Below are positions 43,723 through 63,455 of a stretch of 64,000 nucleotides of DNA, piece after piece. The translations under genes and the position numbers were made by a program. The DNA is from TPA_inf: Saccharomyces (Eukaryota). The DNA lies in contig BK006941.2 of NCBI GenBank assembly GCA_000146045.2, positions 224,001 through 288,000 of the forward strand. Direction: 5' to 3'. Position 1 is the stretch's first letter. Each line of letters opens with the position of its first letter. The notes under the pieces were generated by a model that had not been told where the DNA came from, did not search any database, and saw only the letters and a program-made list of their open reading frames with translations.

Positions 43723-45117
<1,395 letters not shown>

Positions 45118-45292
45118 TTAATGTTTTCCCTCGAAGTATAGAAGTTGATGTATATATACAATATACATATATATATATTCTTGTACATAGTACTTGCTGA
45201 GTTTCCTTTTCTTTTTCTTCCGTTTTGTAAGAAAGCCCCGGAAAATATAGTGTTCCATAGGATAAAGAAAAACAGGCATACATATGTGCAAG

Positions 45293-46144
45293 CTAGTCGA
45301 GTAGGATAGGTTCATTAGAGACCAGTCTTGCAATATCGTCATTCAGTTCCGTCTCCAAATTAAAATCAGAGTAGTAATGTAGCGGGATCAAGGGCGAAAT
45401 ATCCTTGACCGTGGGTATGAGGTTCCCACTTGACCAGTTTCGGAATACGTGCTGCGCTGTGATGGGAGTATCGAATACAGTATATATGATGATTGAATCA
45501 TCCTTCGAGTAGTTGTTTCTTTCAGAGAAGTAGATGTCGTAGATTTCATTAGCACTTAGCGTGATGAATACTTGATTGCGCAAATGAGATAAGCAGTTTG
45601 ATTTATTATTTGATTGCAGGAAGTTGTCAAGGACAATTCTCAAAGTAGAGCAATCGTAATACGGATGTTGCGAAGCATTTTCTTGGTCTTGTGTGTTGAG
45701 ATGTTTCCAGTCACCATAGGGCAAGTTGAAATGTTTTAGTTTCCTGAGTAGCTCGCCGTGGCGTTGGATTTGCAATAAATCAGGATGTGGTGTGGTGGTG
45801 GGTATCGTACTCGATTCAGATTCTTCCAGCTTTTGTATAAGTTTATTTCTTTCAATGTCGTTTGTTTTCCGTAGGAACTCAATTAACCAGCGGTCGTAAT
45901 GGGGTCTCACGTCTGCATTGGTGAGGATATTAGTTGCGGTCGATAATAAGTGGAATTTGTGTATAATTGATGGATTGTCCGGGTGTTTGTCAGGATGATA
46001 CTTCAGGGCAAGGGTCCTGTATTTGCGTTTAATTTGGGGCAAATCATCGTAGATGGTATGGACGTCCAGGGGGGTCGGTAATTCTAATACATCATATAGG
46101 TTCAAACGTTGATTTATTACGTCTTCCAATTCGTGTCCTGGCAT
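45293..46144 (-). CDS. CWC23: J-domain spliceosomal protein (283 aa)
   Basis: J domain with HPD motif (YDVLELP...ALKYHPDKHPDN). The true start is the Met at 46144 (MPGHELEDVINQ...). The longer track ORF to 46336 reads through an upstream TA/TG microsatellite (MNIYTHTHIYISHIYIYICIYIC) and is an artefact. Confidence 0.88.
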   Translation of the reverse strand: MPGHELEDVINQRLNLYDVLELPTPLDVHTIYDDLPQIKRKYRTLALKYHPDKHPDNPSIIHKFHLLSTATNILTNADVRPHYDRWLIEFLRKTNDIERNKLIQKLEESESSTIPTTTPHPDLLQIQRHGELLRKLKHFNLPYGDWKHLNTQDQENASQHPYYDCSTLRIVLDNFLQSNNKSNCLSHLRNQVFITLSANEIYDIYFSERNNYSKDDSIIIYTVFDTPITAQHVFRNWSSGNLIPTVKDISPLIPLHYYSDFNLETELNDDIARLVSNEPILLD

Positions 46145-46268
46145 AGTCGTGGCGAGGCTTGTAGTACGGCGATGGACTTGCTTTTTGATTTTGCTTTCAT
46201 CTTCTAATGTCTTGCGAGATAATATGCAAGGAAAACAAAGGAAAGAAAATACAAAGTAATGCGGCTTG

Positions 46269-46332
46269 CATATATATATACATATATATATGTATATATG
46301 TGATATATATATGTGTGTGTGTGTATATATAT
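46269..46332 (+). repeat. compound (TA)n/(TG)7 microsatellite between CWC23 start and SOH1 stop
   Basis: tatatatatacatatatatatgtatatatgtgatatatatatgtgtgtgtgtgtatatatat read directly. Confidence 0.9.
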
Positions 46333-46391
46333 TCATGAGTGTATAAAATAGATATATGAATGCGTGCGAATGTAGTTATAATTAGGTGTGT

Positions 46392-46775
46392 TCAGTTGGC
46401 CCATCTTTCTACCATTTCATTCATCCATTGCGGGCCTTGTAATTGAATGATCTTGGGCAGCTCGTCTAGCCCTTCCAGCAGGCCATCTTCATTAACGATC
46501 GCCGACTCCATGAACCCGTTCAACAGCTTTAAAATGAAGAGACAGTTTGGATACACAATGCATTGCGAATAAGGGGGGTTGCACCAGTACTCCAGGTATT
46601 TCAAGTAGTTTTTGAAGTTAGGAGACTTCCAGATCTGCTGTTGAGTGAGTAAGTACGTTACGTATTGGATGTTTGCCAGTGACTGGATAAATTCGAGCTC
46701 CACTTCGAACCTCGTGGGGAGAGGATTTTGATCCGAGGAAGGTGTCGCTGGTGCGTTTCCATTAGTGCTTGACAT
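46392..46775 (-). CDS. SOH1: Mediator subunit Med31 (127 aa)
   Basis: ORF 46392..46775 - MSSTNGNAPATPSSDQNPLPTRFEVELEFIQSLANIQYVTYL... is the conserved Med31/Soh1 fold. Confidence 0.93.
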   Translation of the reverse strand: MSSTNGNAPATPSSDQNPLPTRFEVELEFIQSLANIQYVTYLLTQQQIWKSPNFKNYLKYLEYWCNPPYSQCIVYPNCLFILKLLNGFMESAIVNEDGLLEGLDELPKIIQLQGPQWMNEMVERWAN

Positions 46776-46996
46776 CCTGGGTGGAGCTTGGGGGAACTTT
46801 GCCGTCTTATGAGTGCTATAAGTTTTGGCTTACTTTGCCTCATTTTTCCTGCATTTCTTTTTCTTTTTCATCCTTTAAGAACACGTTAGCGGGAAAACCG
46901 TGAAATAAAATACAAAACGAACTGTTCGAAAAAAGCCAAAGGGGAAACGCCTAAAACTCCACTGAAACCAGCTATAAAGCACGGCATATTACAACA

Positions 46997-48139
46997 ATGT
47001 CTAGCAAATGGTTTAATGCTATACACCTACTGGTGTGCCCGTTGACGGTACTGGTAGGATATCTCATGAACGCGTATGGCTACGGTGCGGCGCTGCAAGC
47101 AACCCTGAATAAGGATGGTCTGGTAAATGCTATGTTGGTAAAGAAAGGGTGGTTTTGGACTTCCTTGGTCGGATGGTGGTGTATTATACGCTACCGTGCG
47201 GTGCCGGGGGCAACCGGCAGAGACCGAAGACACATTGTCCAGTCATTCAAAAGGTATGCCATACTGACAGTGTGGTGGTACGTATTCACGCAAGGTATAT
47301 GGTTTGGCGTAGGCCCCATCATGGACTTGGTATTCGTATATACGGGTGGCCATTGTCACTATGACGTCTTCGATGATGCAGGTCACGTGAACGAAGACTT
47401 CCAGGGTTCTGTCACCCGGACTAATCGCGCGTTGGCGCTCATTCACAATGTCCTCACTTTGCACGGACACCACCAAGAACACCGTCAGCAACAACTCTGG
47501 GACCGCTCCATAGGGTCGATCCAGGGCGCCCTGCAGGCGACGCAACCGAAAACCCCAAAAAACGTAACGGCCAGCGCTGCCGCTGCCATCAATACTTTTA
47601 TTCATGACCAGATGCACAGGTGGCAAGGTCCGTTAACCACCTCGGCACAGTGCAGACGTTTTGGAGGCCATTGGGCTGGAGGACACGATCCATCCGGGCA
47701 CGTGTTCTTGGCCACCTTGATGTGCATGTTTCTTCTAGGTGAGCTACGTGTGTTTGGGCGTCGTGCACTGGCTCACTTGTACGCGCAGAAATGGCAGCTT
47801 GTACGATTGGTGACCCGCCTTTTCGACACTGGACCGCTATGGACGTGGCGGCGGTGTGGCGGCGGCTCAATGACCTGTGGCGCCCGTTTGTGGCGTGCGA
47901 TAGTCGAGCCGCCTGTCACGTGCGCGGCCGCCCTGCTCCGTTTGACGCGATGCATAGCATGCGACCACCCAGTAATCATACTGCTGACGCTATTGGTCAC
48001 GTGGTTATGGCAGCTGCTGTTGACTGCGGTGGCGTCCCGTTTCCACACCGTACGTGAGCACATGTCTGGATTGCTAGCTGCGTACATAGTGACAGGCCTT
48101 GTCTACGCTCGCGACGCAGCCGCGCTACGTCCAGTATGA
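46997..48139 (+). CDS. SCS3: FIT-family (fat storage-inducing transmembrane) ER membrane protein, 380 aa
   Basis: ORF 46997..48139 +. Multi-TM protein rich in W/R/A/G. The gene is unusually GC-rich for yeast (see findings). Matches YGL126W. Confidence 0.88.
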   Translation: MSSKWFNAIHLLVCPLTVLVGYLMNAYGYGAALQATLNKDGLVNAMLVKKGWFWTSLVGWWCIIRYRAVPGATGRDRRHIVQSFKRYAILTVWWYVFTQGIWFGVGPIMDLVFVYTGGHCHYDVFDDAGHVNEDFQGSVTRTNRALALIHNVLTLHGHHQEHRQQQLWDRSIGSIQGALQATQPKTPKNVTASAAAAINTFIHDQMHRWQGPLTTSAQCRRFGGHWAGGHDPSGHVFLATLMCMFLLGELRVFGRRALAHLYAQKWQLVRLVTRLFDTGPLWTWRRCGGGSMTCGARLWRAIVEPPVTCAAALLRLTRCIACDHPVIILLTLLVTWLWQLLLTAVASRFHTVREHMSGLLAAYIVTGLVYARDAAALRPV

Positions 48140-48291
48140 CTCAGGAAAAGTTGGCGATAGACCACGAGCGACTGAAAAAATAACAGCGACTTTTCTCCCG
48201 GTAGCGGGCCGTCGTTTAGTCATTCTATCCCTCGGATTATAGACTGTGAATATTGCATATGCAACTTTGACTCAAATTTTTCCAAAATTTG

Positions 48292-48356
48292 ATATATATA
48301 TATATATATATATGTTTGTATGTATATATATATATACGTATATATATCATATATAC
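48292..48356 (+). repeat. (TA)n dinucleotide microsatellite cluster in the SCS3-MET13 intergenic region (MET13 promoter)
   Basis: (AT)11 at 48292-48313, (TA)7 at 48323-48336, and more TA-rich sequence to 48356. Confidence 0.9.
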
Positions 48357-48519
48357 GAAAAGTAGAAAAAAAAAGGTGATATTTCGCTCGTGGAAAAGCT
48401 AATGCCACAGCTTGTGTTTCGTGTAGTTTGCCTTGCTCCCCTTGATTGAAATAGTCTCCCTAAACTAAAGTTATCAGCAAACAGAACCACCACAGTTACT
48501 ACTACAACCACATCGCAAT

Positions 48520-50322
48520 ATGAAGATCACAGAAAAATTAGAGCAACATAGACAGACCTCTGGCAAGCCCACTTACTCATTCGAGTACTTCGTCCCGAAG
48601 ACTACACAAGGTGTACAGAACCTGTATGACCGGATGGACCGGATGTACGAGGCTTCTTTGCCCCAATTTATTGACATCACCTGGAATGCAGGCGGTGGAC
48701 GGTTGTCACATCTGTCCACGGACTTGGTTGCGACAGCGCAGTCTGTGCTTGGTTTGGAAACGTGCATGCACCTTACCTGCACCAATATGCCCATTTCGAT
48801 GATTGACGACGCTTTAGAAAACGCTTATCACTCCGGTTGCCAGAACATCCTAGCGCTGAGAGGAGATCCTCCTAGGGACGCAGAAAACTGGACTCCCGTT
48901 GAAGGTGGCTTCCAGTATGCCAAGGACTTGATTAAGTATATCAAGTCCAAGTACGGTGACCATTTCGCTATCGGCGTTGCCGGCTACCCGGAGTGCCATC
49001 CGGAGTTGCCTAACAAAGACGTGAAGCTTGATCTCGAGTATTTGAAGCAGAAGATCGACGCCGGCGGCGACTTCATCATCACTCAGATGTTTTACGATGT
49101 TGATAATTTCATCAACTGGTGTTCCCAAGTTAGAGCTGCGGGCATGGACGTGCCCATTATTCCCGGGATCATGCCGATCACTACCTACGCGGCCTTCTTG
49201 AGAAGGGCCCAATGGGGCCAAATCTCCATCCCTCAACATTTCTCGTCCCGATTGGATCCTATCAAGGACGATGACGAGTTGGTCCGTGATATCGGAACTA
49301 ACTTGATCGTGGAAATGTGTCAAAAATTGCTCGACAGTGGTTACGTTTCTCACTTGCACATCTACACCATGAACTTGGAAAAAGCGCCTCTCATGATTCT
49401 GGAAAGATTGAACATTCTACCTACGGAATCAGAGTTCAATGCACATCCATTGGCCGTGTTGCCATGGAGAAAATCTTTGAATCCAAAGCGTAAAAACGAG
49501 GAAGTCAGACCTATCTTCTGGAAGAGAAGACCTTACTCCTATGTCGCAAGAACCTCTCAATGGGCCGTGGACGAATTCCCCAACGGTAGATTCGGTGATT
49601 CGTCTTCTCCTGCGTTCGGTGACTTGGATCTGTGTGGTTCAGACTTGATCAGGCAATCAGCGAACAAATGTCTCGAATTATGGTCCACCCCTACTTCCAT
49701 CAACGACGTCGCCTTCTTGGTCATCAACTACTTGAATGGAAACTTGAAGTGTTTACCTTGGAGTGATATCCCCATCAATGATGAAATAAATCCAATCAAA
49801 GCACACTTGATTGAGCTGAACCAGCATTCTATCATCACTATAAACTCTCAACCTCAAGTCAACGGCATTAGGTCCAATGACAAAATTCATGGTTGGGGAC
49901 CCAAGGATGGTTACGTTTACCAGAAGCAATATTTGGAATTTATGTTGCCCAAGACTAAGTTGCCCAAGTTGATTGACACCTTGAAAAACAATGAGTTCTT
50001 GACCTACTTCGCCATCGACTCTCAAGGTGACCTGCTAAGTAATCATCCAGACAACTCCAAGTCCAACGCTGTGACTTGGGGTATTTTCCCCGGCAGAGAA
50101 ATTCTTCAACCTACCATTGTCGAGAAAATTTCGTTCTTAGCGTGGAAGGAGGAGTTCTATCATATCTTGAATGAATGGAAACTAAACATGAATAAATACG
50201 ATAAACCGCATAGTGCCCAATTCATTCAGTCCTTGATTGACGATTACTGCTTGGTCAATATTGTTGACAATGACTACATTTCTCCAGATGATCAAATCCA
50301 TTCCATCCTACTAAGCCTATAA
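48520..50322 (+). CDS. MET13: methylenetetrahydrofolate reductase (600 aa): N-terminal catalytic TIM-barrel plus C-terminal regulatory domain
   Basis: ORF 48520..50322 + starts MKITEKLEQHRQTSGKPTYSFEYFVPKT..., a MTHFR catalytic domain. Matches YGL125W. Confidence 0.93.
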   Translation: MKITEKLEQHRQTSGKPTYSFEYFVPKTTQGVQNLYDRMDRMYEASLPQFIDITWNAGGGRLSHLSTDLVATAQSVLGLETCMHLTCTNMPISMIDDALENAYHSGCQNILALRGDPPRDAENWTPVEGGFQYAKDLIKYIKSKYGDHFAIGVAGYPECHPELPNKDVKLDLEYLKQKIDAGGDFIITQMFYDVDNFINWCSQVRAAGMDVPIIPGIMPITTYAAFLRRAQWGQISIPQHFSSRLDPIKDDDELVRDIGTNLIVEMCQKLLDSGYVSHLHIYTMNLEKAPLMILERLNILPTESEFNAHPLAVLPWRKSLNPKRKNEEVRPIFWKRRPYSYVARTSQWAVDEFPNGRFGDSSSPAFGDLDLCGSDLIRQSANKCLELWSTPTSINDVAFLVINYLNGNLKCLPWSDIPINDEINPIKAHLIELNQHSIITINSQPQVNGIRSNDKIHGWGPKDGYVYQKQYLEFMLPKTKLPKLIDTLKNNEFLTYFAIDSQGDLLSNHPDNSKSNAVTWGIFPGREILQPTIVEKISFLAWKEEFYHILNEWKLNMNKYDKPHSAQFIQSLIDDYCLVNIVDNDYISPDDQIHSILLSL

Positions 50323-50779
50323 TAACACAGACAACGATAACAGTTCTTTAACAGAATTGTCAACCCCCCCTCTTTGCATTACATTCAACATTACATTGCA
50401 TTTTTTTTTTTTTATTCACTATTATTATGGTTCTTCTTTTTTACCAGATTTTGCTCCTTCCTTTTCCATTGTTTTACCATTCTTTTTTAACTAGCATTTC
50501 AACATGTGTTTGGTTAACACCCCTTCTTTTTTTTCAGGAAAATCCTTTCATTTCTTCTCATACTTTCAACAAAGTTTTTTAAAGGTACTTTAAAATAGTT
50601 CAACACCCTCTTCCTTCATTTATTTATTCTCTTCATATTCAACATACTCGAAAAGGAAGAACACTAAAAGTACTTACATTTTCACATGTATGTATACCTA
50701 TATATATATATATATATACTCTTATAGATATATTTACAAATTAAAGGAAAAAATAATAAAATAACCTCCCTGTCACAAG

Positions 50780-52714
50780 TTAAAACACGGCCCCATCACT
50801 TATAAATAGTCTCGACTCGTGTTTTTGACACCAATTAGCTACTTTTCTCGCACTCTTGAATAAAACCCTTTTGTCAACAATCCCATTATTTCCAATCAGA
50901 TACAATTCAAAAGTGGGCGTCACCCACGCCATTCCTACCATATTAACCGATTCTTGTTTGAATGATGAATTTCCAATAATGTACTCATCCAATTCAGAAA
51001 AATCCATTTGTGTTTCGTCCATCGCCAAGTCCTCATTGTCTTTGGAACTCCATCTAACAAAATTTAACATAGACCTACTTAACAAATTGCCATTATCTCT
51101 CACTACCGTGCCATGTAACTGTTGGTAGTATGTCTTCAATTTCAATTCATATTCTAGCCCCTGTGAAGAATCCAGTGCGATGTTACTGTTGACTTCGAAG
51201 TGCGGCATAACATATTGAACGTTTTGCTTCGATTTATATATGAAATGATGAACCATTGGTGCTGGTATATCGCTAAGCTTGAACCCTTTTGAAGTATTTA
51301 TCTTTTTCAATAGCTTCTCTTCTTCGAGTTTAATAATCAACTCGTCACTAAACGACTTCAATGAAAAGAATGCATCCTTTTGTGCACTTATTAATACTAG
51401 TGCCGATTTCTCATTGCTGTGAGTATCATTAGGTAGAAACTTAATATAACAATAAAGAAAACCACTCGAATTGAACTTGGGAAAACAAATGGGTACCCAA
51501 AGTTCCTGAGTTTCGTCTAAATTTTGAAATTGATGAGATATTAGGCAAAATAGAAGATGTAAATCTGTAGTGTGTAAAGTATGGCCTCTGGGTCGAAGAA
51601 CACAGCACAATTTATTCTGAGGCGCAATTATCAAGCCGTACAGTAAGGTCCCCCTGGGAATGTCCTGCCTTTTCTCCAGTTGCTGTAAAACCACATTCTG
51701 CAACTTTAATCTTGAAGAATGGTTAAATGGTAAGCATTGTAAAGAGTTCAATAGTAAATCCGGGAACATTCTGTTACAGATTAGTGAACATATTTCGTCT
51801 AAATTTTCAAAATCTGTGCTTTCTAGATAATTTCTCAGGTCGAAATTTTCTCTTTTGGAAAATAACCTAAGTAATTGGCGTTCACTTAAAGACGAAAGAA
51901 TATACGAATATAAAAAATCCAACTGATTCAACAATTCGTTCGAGGACTCGCCTCTTTCGGATTGAGCCATTAGTAATATAGGTGATTTATCCAAAAAAGT
52001 AAGCCTTTTACCAGAAGTTAAAGTGGATATAGTTTTCAATTCCGATGGTCCATTGACTTGGAAGTAGCTTATTACCGTATTAACGAGCCCTGTATATGAC
52101 ATGATCTGTTCATCTTTGCCGTGCATGCAATAGATCGGTTTACCCGCTGACGTGAATATGAAGAAATTTTTGTCACAGAGAGTCTGGCTCTCATTTAACT
52201 TGCAGTTACTATTGAACTTCGAAAACTTGAATACATTAGGAATTTCGTTACTTACGTACGGCCGTCTCTGTAGTTCCGATCCTCTTATAGATGTTTCCAT
52301 AGAATATATGCTTTCGGCCAAGCGACTCCTGATGTCATTCTCGCTGTCCAAATAAGGACCGAAATCCTTTTTTGGACTGTTTAGTGCTCTCGTTGTATCA
52401 TCATTGCTCTTTGCCAAATCTGCTGACAATAAATTATTTTTAGCTTGCAATTTTTTTGTTTGCAAAGGAGATCTTCTGGATGCCAAAGATGTTGTATTCA
52501 AAGAATTTACAGAGGTAGATTTACTAACAGAATGATCATCGCATATTGGCATTGCTATAGGCGCCTTCTTGAAGAATGTTTCATCTAGATTAACCGATGT
52601 CGTTGGTTCTGAAGTCGTTGCCACGATTGGAATACCCTCAAAATTCCCACTTTTACTATGCTTCAATTGACCCTTCGGTATCTCAGCATCTAGGTAGCTT
52701 TCATTGAGATTCAT
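50780..52714 (-). CDS. MON1: Mon1, subunit of the Mon1-Ccz1 Rab7/Ypt7 GEF (644 aa)
   Basis: ORF 50780..52714 -. Ser-rich N-terminus followed by longin-domain region. Matches YGL124C. Confidence 0.9.
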   Translation of the reverse strand: MNLNESYLDAEIPKGQLKHSKSGNFEGIPIVATTSEPTTSVNLDETFFKKAPIAMPICDDHSVSKSTSVNSLNTTSLASRRSPLQTKKLQAKNNLLSADLAKSNDDTTRALNSPKKDFGPYLDSENDIRSRLAESIYSMETSIRGSELQRRPYVSNEIPNVFKFSKFNSNCKLNESQTLCDKNFFIFTSAGKPIYCMHGKDEQIMSYTGLVNTVISYFQVNGPSELKTISTLTSGKRLTFLDKSPILLMAQSERGESSNELLNQLDFLYSYILSSLSERQLLRLFSKRENFDLRNYLESTDFENLDEICSLICNRMFPDLLLNSLQCLPFNHSSRLKLQNVVLQQLEKRQDIPRGTLLYGLIIAPQNKLCCVLRPRGHTLHTTDLHLLFCLISHQFQNLDETQELWVPICFPKFNSSGFLYCYIKFLPNDTHSNEKSALVLISAQKDAFFSLKSFSDELIIKLEEEKLLKKINTSKGFKLSDIPAPMVHHFIYKSKQNVQYVMPHFEVNSNIALDSSQGLEYELKLKTYYQQLHGTVVRDNGNLLSRSMLNFVRWSSKDNEDLAMDETQMDFSELDEYIIGNSSFKQESVNMVGMAWVTPTFELYLIGNNGIVDKRVLFKSARKVANWCQKHESRLFISDGAVF

Positions 52715-54945: not shown

Positions 54946-56523
54946 TCAGTTCATTTCCGTATCTTGTTCTTGGTGCGTAAAACTGGTTTGCGGAGGAGCA
55001 TTTTCAATTATTGCGTTTTCTGGCAATGCAAATGGCCTTTCATTGGTAGGAACGTTTGAATTGGGTGCAGCGCCTTTCTTTTCCGGAAGTACTCTGCCTG
55101 GAGGATGTCTGAATAGACAGTAAATATTCTTACAATTGACACCAAATCTACAATCTTCATTAATTGGATGGCCAAATAAACAATCAATTCTAGTACAGTT
55201 TGCTCCTTCACGGCACATAATATGAGAACGAGCATGTCTATATTTGCAACGTTTATTGGTGCAGTGCGTACCGAACTTACATTGTTCTAAGGACTTTTCA
55301 ACCGGAGGTGGAGCTGCTTTCTTCTGGCTTATTGGTTTTACTTCCTTGATCTTCGACAATGAAGAGTGGGCCTTTCTACACTCAGGATTATCACATGTCA
55401 AATTCTTGTCACACCACATTAGATCAATGACTTTCGCATCTTCATTTGCTGGTGTTGGATGACCAAATGGGCATGATGGATTGGAACACAGAGCCCCAAA
55501 TTTACACAGAACGATACCAGTTTGTACCGGTTTCCTTTTTGCCGCCAATAAATCAGCTTTTCTTTTTTGAAATTCTTCACGAGTTCTTTCCATTTCCTTC
55601 ATCAACTCTTCATCTTCATTTGGATGTAAAAACTCACAAGTTCCGGGAGGCTTTGGACAATTTGGATATTCATTACATACCTTAGTTGGGTGTGCATGTG
55701 GGCATGATCTACCAAGAGGACAGTGAGGAAACAATCTGCAACGCCCCTCTTTCTTGGTTGGAGTGAAGTTCATATTACTCTCACCCGCCATTCCAAGTGC
55801 TTTTGCTAACGGATTAAAACGTGTGGAATTATTGTTGCGTCCTCCACGGTTCCCACCGCGACCACCTCTACGATTCTTTCCAACGGCGCCTCCGCCACGT
55901 TGAGTGAACCTTTGGCTGTTATCTACAGGCGCAAACTGAGGGGGAGCTGCAGCGTTAACAACGCCGGAAAAGGCTGATATGGGGGATGGAGTTGCAGGAG
56001 CATCTGTCTGCATTGCATTCTGGGTCCCTAGTTGTGGCTGAAGTGGTTGAAGTTGAGGTTGCTGTTGAGGTTGCTGTTGAGGTTGCTGTTGAGGTTGCTG
56101 TTGAGGTTGCTGTTGAGGTTGCTGTTGAGGTTGCTGTTGAGGTTGCTGTTGAGGTTGCTGTTGCGCGATGTCTGGTTGCTGTTGTTGTTGTTGCTGTTGT
56201 TGCTGTTGTGCGATATCCGATTGTCCCAAGCTTTGCGCATTCATCATTCTAATTTTGGAAACAATATTTTCAGCACTTTCTCCCTGTTGCAGAGCTTCTA
56301 ATGCGAAAAAGGCTGTTTGAACAACATTTGCAAGCGTATCTCTCGAAACACTATCAAACAAACTAGCCAGCTCGTCTACGACAGATTCAACAGTACCACC
56401 GTTAACGATCAATAAGACAATATACTCCGCAACATACTTGATATCTTCGTTAAAGTTTGGTATACCAGCCAGTTTTTCGGCAACGATAACCTTCAAGTTT
56501 TCTGTGTACTGTTCTTGAGACAT
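54946..56523 (-). CDS. NAB2: nuclear poly(A)-binding protein with seven tandem CCCH zinc fingers, QQQP repeat and RGG region (525 aa)
   Basis: ORF 54946..56523 -. The N-terminal PWI-like domain, then Q10 + (QQQP)9, then RGG box (GGGAVGKNRRGGRGGNRGGRNN), then C-terminal CX5CX4-6CX3H fingers. Confidence 0.95.
   Translation of the reverse strand: MSQEQYTENLKVIVAEKLAGIPNFNEDIKYVAEYIVLLIVNGGTVESVVDELASLFDSVSRDTLANVVQTAFFALEALQQGESAENIVSKIRMMNAQSLGQSDIAQQQQQQQQQQQPDIAQQQPQQQPQQQPQQQPQQQPQQQPQQQPQQQPQQQPQLQPLQPQLGTQNAMQTDAPATPSPISAFSGVVNAAAPPQFAPVDNSQRFTQRGGGAVGKNRRGGRGGNRGGRNNNSTRFNPLAKALGMAGESNMNFTPTKKEGRCRLFPHCPLGRSCPHAHPTKVCNEYPNCPKPPGTCEFLHPNEDEELMKEMERTREEFQKRKADLLAAKRKPVQTGIVLCKFGALCSNPSCPFGHPTPANEDAKVIDLMWCDKNLTCDNPECRKAHSSLSKIKEVKPISQKKAAPPPVEKSLEQCKFGTHCTNKRCKYRHARSHIMCREGANCTRIDCLFGHPINEDCRFGVNCKNIYCLFRHPPGRVLPEKKGAAPNSNVPTNERPFALPENAIIENAPPQTSFTHQEQDTEMN
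56052..56159 (-). repeat. NAB2: perfect 12-bp tandem repeat (plus-strand GTTGAGGTTGCT) x9 inside NAB2, encoding (QQQP)9; followed at 56175-56215 by a CAA/CAG tract encoding Q10
   Basis: Nine identical 12-bp units counted directly at 56052..56159, with degenerate units on both flanks. Confidence 0.95.
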
Positions 56524-63349: not shown

Positions 63350-63455
63350 TGAAACGGACAGGAATTGAACCTGCAACCCTTCGATTGCAATCTTATTCCG
63401 TGGAATTTCCAAGATTTAATTGGAGTCGAAAGCTCTACCATTGAGCCACCGCTTC
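63350..63455 (-). tRNA. tW(CCA): tRNA-Trp (anticodon CCA) with a 34-nt intron; exons 63420..63455 and 63350..63385, intron 63386..63419
   Basis: Minus-strand read GAAGCGGTGGCTCAATGGTAGAGCTTTCGACTCCAA[TTAAATCTTGGAAATTCCACGGAATAAGATTGCA]ATCGAAGGGTTGCAGGTTCAATTCCTGTCCGTTTCA matches yeast tRNA-Trp with the intron 3' of the anticodon. A-box-like (TGGCTCAATGG) and B-box (GGTTCAATTCC) are present. A T6 run lies immediately downstream on the minus strand. Confidence 0.93.

Follow-up and report, generated by a model that had tools for sequence, protein, structure and literature searches.

Regional peaks of GC content at third codon positions (GC3), which take in adjacent genes on either strand, have been described in Saccharomyces (Sharp & Lloyd 1993; Bradnam et al. 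1999; Lynch et al. 2010, PMC2997560). According to Lynch et al., the positions of these peaks are conserved among Saccharomyces species, and the values shift systematically between species, most of all at the peaks (PMC2997560). GC3 is highest in S. bayanus and lowest in S. mikatae, and the richest S. bayanus genes reach about 90% GC3 where their S. cerevisiae orthologues have about 67% (PMC2997560). The same authors ascribed the peaks to GC-biased gene conversion (gBGC) at recombination hotspots of conserved position (PMC2997560). The present analysis concerns one such peak, around the genes SCS3 and MET13, in a stretch of 64,000 nucleotides of S. cerevisiae DNA (GenBank contig BK006941.2, positions 224,001 to 288,000), which is called the window below and to which all coordinates refer.

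The SCS3/MET13 peak differs from the published peaks in nothing essential. It covers adjacent genes on both strands, its position is conserved, and it stands highest in the S. bayanus/eubayanus lineage and lower in S. cerevisiae and S. mikatae. It is a narrow instance, of about 5 kb and four genes, and SCS3, with a GC3 of 0.87 in S. eubayanus and 0.60 in S. cerevisiae, lies near the extreme of the published range. Literature searches on the locus found no paper treating this peak individually. The feature is a typical, if strong, case of a phenomenon mapped genome-wide decades ago, and belongs to an already known kind.

Two further kinds of system invite comparison. One is gBGC at promoter-anchored hotspots (Birdsell 2002; Mancera 2008). 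Lam and Keeney reported that Spo11 hotspots lie in the nucleosome-free regions of promoters, that convergent spacers are cold, and that hotspots keep their position and strength from S. cerevisiae through to S. kudriavzevii (bioRxiv 10.1101/023176). In the model of Marsolier-Kergoat (2011), GC3 decays from breaks at gene ends and conversion tracts stop at about 0.001 per bp (PMC3020949). The present peak is like such hotspots in that its richest gene is short with promoters on both sides, its scale is perhaps about 1 kb, and it is long-lived. It departs from the model in that recent changes in S. cerevisiae run toward AT, and hotspot activity at its spacers is presumed. The other kind is the compositionally foreign island that stems from horizontal transfer or introgression, such as the introgressed left arm of chromosome C in Lachancea kluyveri (C-left). 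The sharp compositional discontinuity is shared, but the present island measures 5 kb rather than hundreds of kb, keeps the ancestral gene order, and shows protein similarities that follow the species tree.

Composition and extent of the peak

The overall GC content of the window is 38.4%. When counted in 1-kb windows (mean 0.384, standard deviation (SD) 0.036), it reaches its maximum of 0.550 at 47001-48000 (z 4.6), and in 500-bp windows the maximum is 0.59 at 47501-48000 (z 4.8). A sequence-only reading of this DNA had described a GC-rich island of about 2.7 kb over SCS3 and the 5' half of MET13, and the existence of such an island is confirmed, well past anything that chance would give. SCS3 (46997..48139, plus strand), the core of the island, has 55.3% GC, within the 55-60% of that reading and 4.7 SD above the 26 other long open reading frames (ORFs). 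MET13 (48520..50322, plus strand) has 45.9% GC overall and a GC3 of 0.577 (z 2.6). Its first 1.2 kb, to which the enrichment had been said to extend, indeed has 48.9% GC, and the remainder has 40.0%.

The limits that had been proposed, 46997-49700, enclose DNA of 49.7% GC, and it was here that the earlier description needed revision. GC3 is 0.594 in SOH1, 0.604 in SCS3, 0.577 in MET13 and 0.45 in CWC23, compared to a mean of 0.40 (SD 0.07) in the other ORFs. The GC3 peak therefore spans CWC23 to the end of MET13, about 45.3-50.3 kb, with sharp limits at RSM23 and MON1. Within MET13, GC3 stays at 0.48-0.68 nearly to the stop codon and only the final window falls to 0.44; a sliding profile puts its maximum of 0.74 at about codon 175 and its 3' end at 0.44. 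The lower total GC of the 3' half is due to codon positions 1 and 2, not position 3. The tract is also not continuous, as had been implied, since AT-rich promoters break up the peak. The spacer between SCS3 and MET13 (48140..48519) has only 35.8% GC, and 48201-48400 inside it has 28.5%. A 60-nt stretch credited with 43 G/C (72%), 47881-47940, was recounted at 44 (73%). The island is thus a silent-site GC peak of about 5 kb over four genes, CWC23, SOH1, SCS3 and MET13, and not a two-gene, 2.7-kb oddity.

The window belongs to chromosome VII, and chromosome-sized S. cerevisiae records carry the SCS3 product, identical at every residue, between the same neighbouring genes. The names given earlier to the island genes and their neighbours were upheld by Pfam. 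SCS3 encodes a FIT-family acyl-CoA diphosphatase of 380 aa (Pfam FIT, 1e-59), and MET13 encodes methylenetetrahydrofolate reductase with its regulatory domain (Pfam MTHFR and MTHFR_C). SOH1, also called MED31 (46392..46775, minus strand; Pfam Med31), is a member of the peak. CWC23, a DnaJ protein gene (45293..46144, minus strand; Pfam DnaJ), forms its left shoulder in the 283-aa model, which was taken from strain annotations. RSM23, which encodes a DAP3 protein, lies left of CWC23 and outside the peak. SOH1 and SCS3 diverge from a promoter spacer at 46776..46996 with 40.7% GC (0.43-0.49 in the sister species). On the right, the convergent spacer of MET13 and MON1 (50323..50779), with 28.0% GC (0.29-0.31 in the sister species), is the border of the island, followed by MON1 (50780-52714, minus strand). 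No RNA genes were found in the island by tRNA and Rfam scans.

The GC of the two main genes is not of the same kind. SCS3 is raised at all three codon positions (GC1 0.58, GC2 0.475, GC3 0.604). GC1 (0.449) and GC2 (0.351) of MET13 are ordinary, so its enrichment is confined to silent sites. The island has a GC of 0.51-0.60 at 4-fold degenerate sites, the flanks one of 0.26-0.36. The peak is independent of strand, as SOH1 on the minus strand and SCS3 and MET13 on the plus strand all have a GC3 of 0.58-0.60.

Expression-linked codon bias was considered as the main cause and rejected. The fraction of optimal codons (Fop) is 0.41 in SCS3, below the background of 0.48, and 0.61 in MET13. SCS3 has an excess of GCG (14 of 39 Ala codons), ACG (10 of 28 Thr), CTG (13 of 46 Leu) and CCG (6 of 12 Pro), and its Arg is encoded by CGN in 23 of 28 codons, where the background of the window is 73% AGR. 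Non-optimal codons are frequent in MET13 too, with GCG at 9/30, GAG at 14/30 and CCC at 12/37, and GGC is also over-used. RPS2 has a Fop of 0.94 and a GC3 of just 0.43. Since the third-position GC of SCS3 lies mostly in codons that yeast normally avoids, and given the contrast with RPS2, translational selection does not explain the island. Part of the C-ending codons of MET13 may nevertheless reflect expression, as its Fop indicates.

Conservation in Saccharomyces and absence from other genera

Orthologous segments of 21 kb from S. mikatae, S. kudriavzevii, S. arboricola and S. eubayanus were compared, together with outgroup loci of Torulaspora globosa, Naumovozyma dairenensis, Nakaseomyces glabratus and Lachancea fermentati. 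The Saccharomyces species compared all share one gene order, with the GC3 peak at the same place and within the same borders. For SCS3 and MET13 respectively, GC3 is 0.60 and 0.58 in both S. cerevisiae and S. mikatae, 0.72 and 0.66 in S. arboricola, 0.78 and 0.74 in S. kudriavzevii, and 0.87 and 0.81 in S. eubayanus, the peak being far stronger in the last three species. GC3 of SOH1 in the sister species is 0.63-0.73 (S. mikatae 0.63, S. kudriavzevii 0.72, S. eubayanus 0.73), and that of CWC23 is 0.50-0.64. Beside the peak, RSM23 and MON1 stay at 0.35-0.44. Sliding profiles of every species show the GC3 of MON1 down to 0.3-0.5 no more than about 100 codons from the convergent spacer.

Beyond Saccharomyces, the Naumovozyma, Nakaseomyces and Lachancea loci lack the peak, though SOH1 and SCS3 adjoin there. 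SCS3 has 33% GC in N. dairenensis, 36% in N. glabratus and 42% in L. fermentati, with a GC3 of 0.32-0.46 in these three species, and GC3 of MET13 in N. dairenensis is 0.29. In T. globosa, GC3 of SCS3 is 0.63, slightly above a GC-richer local background of about 0.52. This distribution places the origin of the peak on the stem of the genus Saccharomyces, before its radiation.

The genes themselves are much older neighbours. All eight other species examined have SOH1 and SCS3 side by side in divergent orientation, and three of the four outgroups have MET13 downstream of SCS3 on the same strand. Identity to the S. cerevisiae protein for MET13 is 94% in S. eubayanus, 77% in N. dairenensis, 76% in T. 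globosa and 70% in L. fermentati; for SOH1 it is 91%, 82%, 76% and 77% in the same species. The best matches of Scs3 outside Saccharomyces are all from Saccharomycetaceae. Ancestral gene order and identities that fall with phylogenetic distance indicate that the segment is native.

Among the loci compared, SCS3 and MET13 adjoin directly in Saccharomyces alone. N. dairenensis has an aldo-keto reductase gene between them, and in T. globosa and L. fermentati four genes (about 9 kb) intervene. In N. glabratus, no MET13 was found within 10 kb of SCS3. The adjacency being limited to Saccharomyces, the close spacing of three promoters found together with the GC peak is specific to the genus.

Direction of recent substitutions

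Changes at third positions were polarised by requiring three other species to agree. Parsimony is error-prone at this divergence and the counts are small, so that the sign of the flux is robust and the equilibrium values are not. On the S. cerevisiae branch, 94 changes from G/C to A/T (S>W) and 20 in the reverse direction (W>S) were counted in the island, for an implied equilibrium GC3 of 0.50. Six flanking genes gave 108 S>W and 187 W>S, with an implied equilibrium of 0.40 (Fisher P = 2e-17 for island versus flank). The island counts of S. mikatae were similar, with 88 S>W and 20 W>S and an implied equilibrium of 0.52 (flank 0.36). S. kudriavzevii had 53 S>W and 33 W>S, with an implied equilibrium of 0.71 (flank 0.48). 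At 4-fold sites, the S. cerevisiae island had 28 S>W and 1 W>S, for an equilibrium of 0.18 against 0.32 in the flank, a value resting on that single W>S change; in S. kudriavzevii the counts were 14 S>W and 12 W>S (equilibrium 0.74). By the sign of these changes, the island is eroding on the branches to S. cerevisiae and S. mikatae, and S. kudriavzevii has maintained it better.

The island (0.389) and the flanks (0.385) have diverged equally at 4-fold sites, indicating that the island is no mutation hotspot. In five S. cerevisiae strains with 60 segregating sites, the polarised changes in the island were 12 S>W and 6 W>S, too few for a test of fixation bias.

Amino-acid composition of Scs3

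Gly, Ala, Arg and Pro (GARP) together make up 29-33% of Scs3 in six Saccharomyces species and 14-25% in ten other Saccharomycetaceae. Phe, Tyr, Met, Ile, Asn and Lys (FYMINK) make up 15-19% and 21-41% in the same two groups. Changes in Scs3 were polarised at sites where the outgroup majority is clear and all Saccharomyces agree. At these sites the AT-coded FYMINK residues were lost 17 times and gained 5 times, and GC-coded residues were gained 8 times and lost 3 times. The SCS3 orthologues outside Saccharomyces have a GC1/GC2 of 0.34-0.44.

Unusual amino-acid usage in the FIT protein, rich in Trp, Arg, Ala and Gly, had been offered as one possible cause of the island. Orthologues outside Saccharomyces are of ordinary composition, and silent sites and neighbouring genes are biased as well; protein composition is therefore rejected as the cause. 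Only the richness in Trp, 3-5.5% in all orthologues, is a trait of the whole family. The Ala, Gly and Arg richness of Scs3 is a consequence of nucleotide pressure and not its source. The weakly constrained membrane protein followed this pressure, and the constrained enzyme Met13 did not.

Shifts of this type, with GARP residues up and FYMINK residues down under gBGC, were reportedly described by Harrison and Charlesworth in 2011 for mammals and Saccharomyces. Scs3 is like these cases in that GC-coded residues rise, AT-coded residues fall and silent sites move alike. It differs in that the overall rate of the protein is not accelerated against other post-duplication yeasts. Scs3 evolves fast in every lineage, with an identity of 35-47% between genera, and relative-rate counts of unique changes (43 vs 39 and 35 vs 42) gave no faster evolution in Saccharomyces than in other post-duplication yeasts.

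Origin of the peak

The best reading of this locus is that it is a native silent-site GC peak, probably built by long-term GC-biased gene conversion at conserved promoter hotspots. A GC-biased gene conversion or recombination hotspot was among the origins suggested earlier, and it gives the best fit to a pattern that is regional, independent of strand, seen at silent sites and in non-optimal codons, and conserved in position across the genus; the causal role of recombination and biased repair is presumed from this fit. Under such a process, meiotic breaks would form at three clustered promoters, those of CWC23, of the divergent SOH1/SCS3 pair and of MET13, and would initiate gene-conversion tracts, each some 1 kb long, passing through the coding sequences. 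The spacers at 46776..46996 and 48140..48519 are candidate initiation sites. Over the long life of promoter-anchored hotspots, a slight repair bias toward G/C would lift GC wherever selection permits. In the well-constrained MET13 and SOH1, silent sites alone would change; in the loosely constrained Scs3 the amino acids would shift too, from AT-coded residues to Ala, Gly, Arg and similar ones. SCS3, lying between two promoters, would be hit hardest, and the promoterless convergent spacer of MET13 and MON1 would set the right border. The push toward GC may have weakened in the lineages of S. cerevisiae and S. mikatae, where the island would be decaying under the usual AT-biased mutation.

Several features of the locus are in keeping with this process. 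Three promoter spacers lie within 2.4 kb, and SCS3, between two of them, is the richest gene. GC3 declines along MET13 from 0.74 to 0.44 in S. cerevisiae and from 0.90 to 0.58 in S. kudriavzevii, and is nearly flat in S. eubayanus. The fall from mid-gene to the promoterless 3' end agrees with conversion tracts whose probability of ending is about 0.001 per bp (PMC3020949). Frequent meiotic gene conversion at MET13 is also on record: non-Mendelian segregation of the met13-B marker reached 5.8% in an SK1 cross; seven of nine other markers in the same cross were at 1.4-3.3%, with LEU2 at 6.3% and CUP2 at 7.8% (PMC10232913, Table S4).

Other observations weigh against gene conversion as the source of the peak. 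Substitutions on the S. cerevisiae branch run toward AT in the island, and no present drive toward GC is visible there; the inferred equilibrium GC3 is 0.18-0.50 by site class, on small counts and with a parsimony polarisation that is unreliable at this divergence. In S. eubayanus, GC3 of MET13 is 0.70-0.90 over all 1.8 kb, block-like rather than decaying from a promoter. The spacers within the island are just mildly enriched in GC, and their status as hotspots is presumed from one genetic marker and the general promoter rule. In addition, the causal direction between GC and recombination is disputed, and recent substitutions fit gBGC poorly (PMC2997560).

Some of these points would suit a reversed causation, in which another process, for example selection on chromatin and nucleosomes or on a loop and axis structure favourable to breaks, makes or keeps the segment GC-rich, and high GC then promotes recombination. 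Passages of PMC2997560 treat this direction as an open alternative, with reference to Gerton 2000, Petes & Merker 2002 and Marsolier-Kergoat & Yeramian 2009. It would agree with the sharp borders at gene ends, the block-like profile of S. eubayanus and the lack of a GC-ward substitution bias on the S. cerevisiae branch. GC that is selected, however, should not erode freely in two lineages, and its GC3 amplitude would hardly differ by ~0.27 between species with the same genes in the same order. We know of no selected function for silent-site GC across four unrelated genes, and this explanation is considered fairly unlikely. A local mutational bias of non-meiotic kind, through transcription, replication timing or repair in the neighbourhood of a nuclear-pore-associated "MET transcriptional hotspot", is quite unlikely. 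The five-gene stretch from RSM23 to MET13 does behave as one regional unit in reporter assays (PMC5417705; PMC11441978), and it roughly coincides with the island. Yet RSM23 lies within the reporter hotspot and outside the GC peak, 4-fold divergence in island and flanks is the same (0.389 vs 0.385), and the per-site W>S rate is not raised on the S. cerevisiae branch.

Selection acting gene by gene would require that FIT proteins need membrane segments rich in Ala, Gly, Arg and Trp and that the well-expressed MET13 uses C-ending optimal codons. Trp at 3-5.5% in all Scs3 orthologues agrees with the first part, and the Fop of MET13 (0.61 against a background of 0.48), with many TTG, TCC, ACC and GTC codons, agrees with the second. 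This account is nevertheless very unlikely, for the Fop of SCS3 is under the background and its GC-ending codons are rare ones, its orthologues outside Saccharomyces have 14-25% GARP and a GC1/GC2 of 0.34-0.44, RPS2 combines a Fop of 0.94 with a GC3 of 0.43, and the bias extends over SOH1, CWC23 and the non-optimal codons of MET13. Foreign or introgressed DNA, in which a GC-rich donor replaced the segment in the Saccharomyces ancestor, is extremely improbable. Atypical composition, sharp borders and the lack of a peak in the nearest other genera would be expected of it. Against it, the adjacency and orientation of SOH1 and SCS3 are kept in Torulaspora, Naumovozyma, Nakaseomyces and Lachancea, and MET13 lies downstream on the same strand in three of those genera. 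Identities of MET13, SOH1 and SCS3 fall with phylogenetic distance in pairwise comparison, without a full tree, and the graded amplitude among species speaks for a process and not a single event. Of the "foreign or ancient origin" raised in the sequence-only reading, the foreign part was rejected because gene order is ancestral and protein identities are consistent with the species tree, and the ancient part stands only in the sense of a peak older than the Saccharomyces radiation.

Motifs in SCS3 and the MET transcriptional hotspot

The GC maximum of the island, at 47855..48004 (plus strand) near the 3' end of SCS3, contains three TGTGGC and two TCACGTG sites, and 47801-48000 has 62.5% GC. 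In all, the coding sequence of SCS3 holds four CACGTG E-boxes, at 47384, 47699, 47917 and 47998, three of which have the extended Cbf1 form TCACGTG. The three TGTGGC sites, the core of the Met31/32 motif, lie at 47855-47894, and the motif cluster is 520-660 bp upstream of MET13. Nearly all of the five Saccharomyces species have preserved the TGTGGC sites and three of the four E-boxes. The TCACGTG at 47917 is retained only in S. cerevisiae and S. eubayanus, CACGTG was found in none of the four outgroup SCS3 genes, and SCS3 of other genera lacks the motif cluster. With the protein sequence held fixed, the Cbf1-type count is unusual (P = 0.002), and the TGTGGC enrichment is not significant (P = 0.19). 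Two of the E-boxes encode conserved Gly-His-Val motifs, so protein constraint explains part of this pattern.

The promoter spacer of MET13 itself contains no CACGTG. It holds GCCACAG at 48404-48410, the reverse complement of the Met31/32 core CTGTGGC and 116 bp before the start codon, and a second CCACAG at 48490-48495. Chromatin immunoprecipitation sequencing placed a co-binding peak of Met4, Met32, Met28 and Cbf1 "near MET13", with coordinates that the text does not give (PMC11441978). In reporter screens, RSM23, CWC23, SOH1, SCS3 and MET13 formed a "MET transcriptional hotspot" dependent on MET13 and on Met4 condensates (PMC5417705, PMC11441978). This transcriptional hotspot (43723-50322, RSM23 to MET13) nearly coincides with the GC3 peak (CWC23 to MET13). 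The GC maximum at the 3' end of SCS3 might be a putative enhancer of the Met4 regulon inside the coding sequence of a neighbour, perhaps seeding the recombination that built the island by opening chromatin, a suggestion that we regard as distinctly doubtful.

Overlapping open reading frames

Nine ORFs overlapping SCS3 and MET13 had been listed earlier with a warning against calling them genes. All nine exist, and the warning proved justified. When the ORFs were projected onto codon alignments of the four sister species, eight of nine proved to be interrupted by stops in one or more species, S. mikatae being among them in all eight cases. Six of the nine lie inside SCS3, at 47027-47233, 47243-47626, 47598-47870 and 47773-48087 on the minus strand and at 47149-47364 and 47791-48057 on the plus strand. 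Five of these six are broken in at least one sister species, all five in S. mikatae, and the 71-aa sense out-of-frame ORF at 47149-47364 (plus strand) is the sole one open in all five species. The longest overlapping ORF, 48850..49359 on the minus strand, has 169 aa from a GTG and 129 aa from its first ATG; its frame has two stops in S. mikatae, two in S. arboricola and one in S. eubayanus. In a scan limited to the three longest antisense ORFs, two of which are inside SCS3, no Pfam match was found.

The number of non-gene ORFs of at least 60 aa is 10 in the island, compared to a median of 4 per 2.7 kb. The chance of a stop-free run of 60 codons is 0.09 at 55% GC and 0.017 at 38% GC. The claim that such frames pile up only here did not hold, as the stretch at 1-3.2 kb has 11-12, the densest accumulation of the window, and that at 54.5-57.7 kb has 10. 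The overlapping ORFs are compositional by-products, which follow from the scarcity of the A/T-rich stop codons. For annotation, long overlapping frames at this locus are composition artefacts and should not be called as genes.

Gene models here are inflated by GC richness too. The mechanical ORF of CWC23 (45293-46336, minus strand) has 347 aa compared to 283 aa as annotated. SOH1 is annotated with 197 aa in S. eubayanus and 123-131 aa in other species, and in one S. cerevisiae assembly SOH1 and CWC23 were merged into one model of 426 aa.

Other features of the window

Strong strand asymmetry is seen in the first 2 kb of the region 1-3500, with an AT skew of about -0.3 and a GC skew down to -0.28. 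Its probable source is low-complexity coding sequence in a minus-strand gene that crosses the start of the window. A 376-aa ORF at 2399-3529 is the second GC peak of the window (47.7%), with all three codon positions raised. The third rise belongs to a 525-aa ORF at 54946-56523 on the minus strand, NAB2 by position, with 43.7% GC overall, a GC1 of 0.56 and a GC3 of 0.33. As its GC1 is high and its GC3 only 0.33, amino-acid composition and not silent sites drives its GC, in contrast to SCS3 and MET13. An Rfam tRNA match of 56 bits and 106 nt lies at 63350-63455 on the minus strand and was not reported by ARAGORN; this tRNA probably contains an intron.

Significance

Current understanding is left unchanged by this locus, which serves as a clean illustration on a small scale. 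What it contributes is illustration and not novelty, through its origin on the genus stem, its erosion in S. cerevisiae and the compositional pull on Scs3. It can be seen that a silent-site GC peak can hold its position throughout a yeast genus and vary in height from species to species. Such a peak can drag along the amino-acid make-up of a loosely constrained protein, Scs3, and leave the constrained Met13 untouched. Once the driving force weakens, the peak decays.

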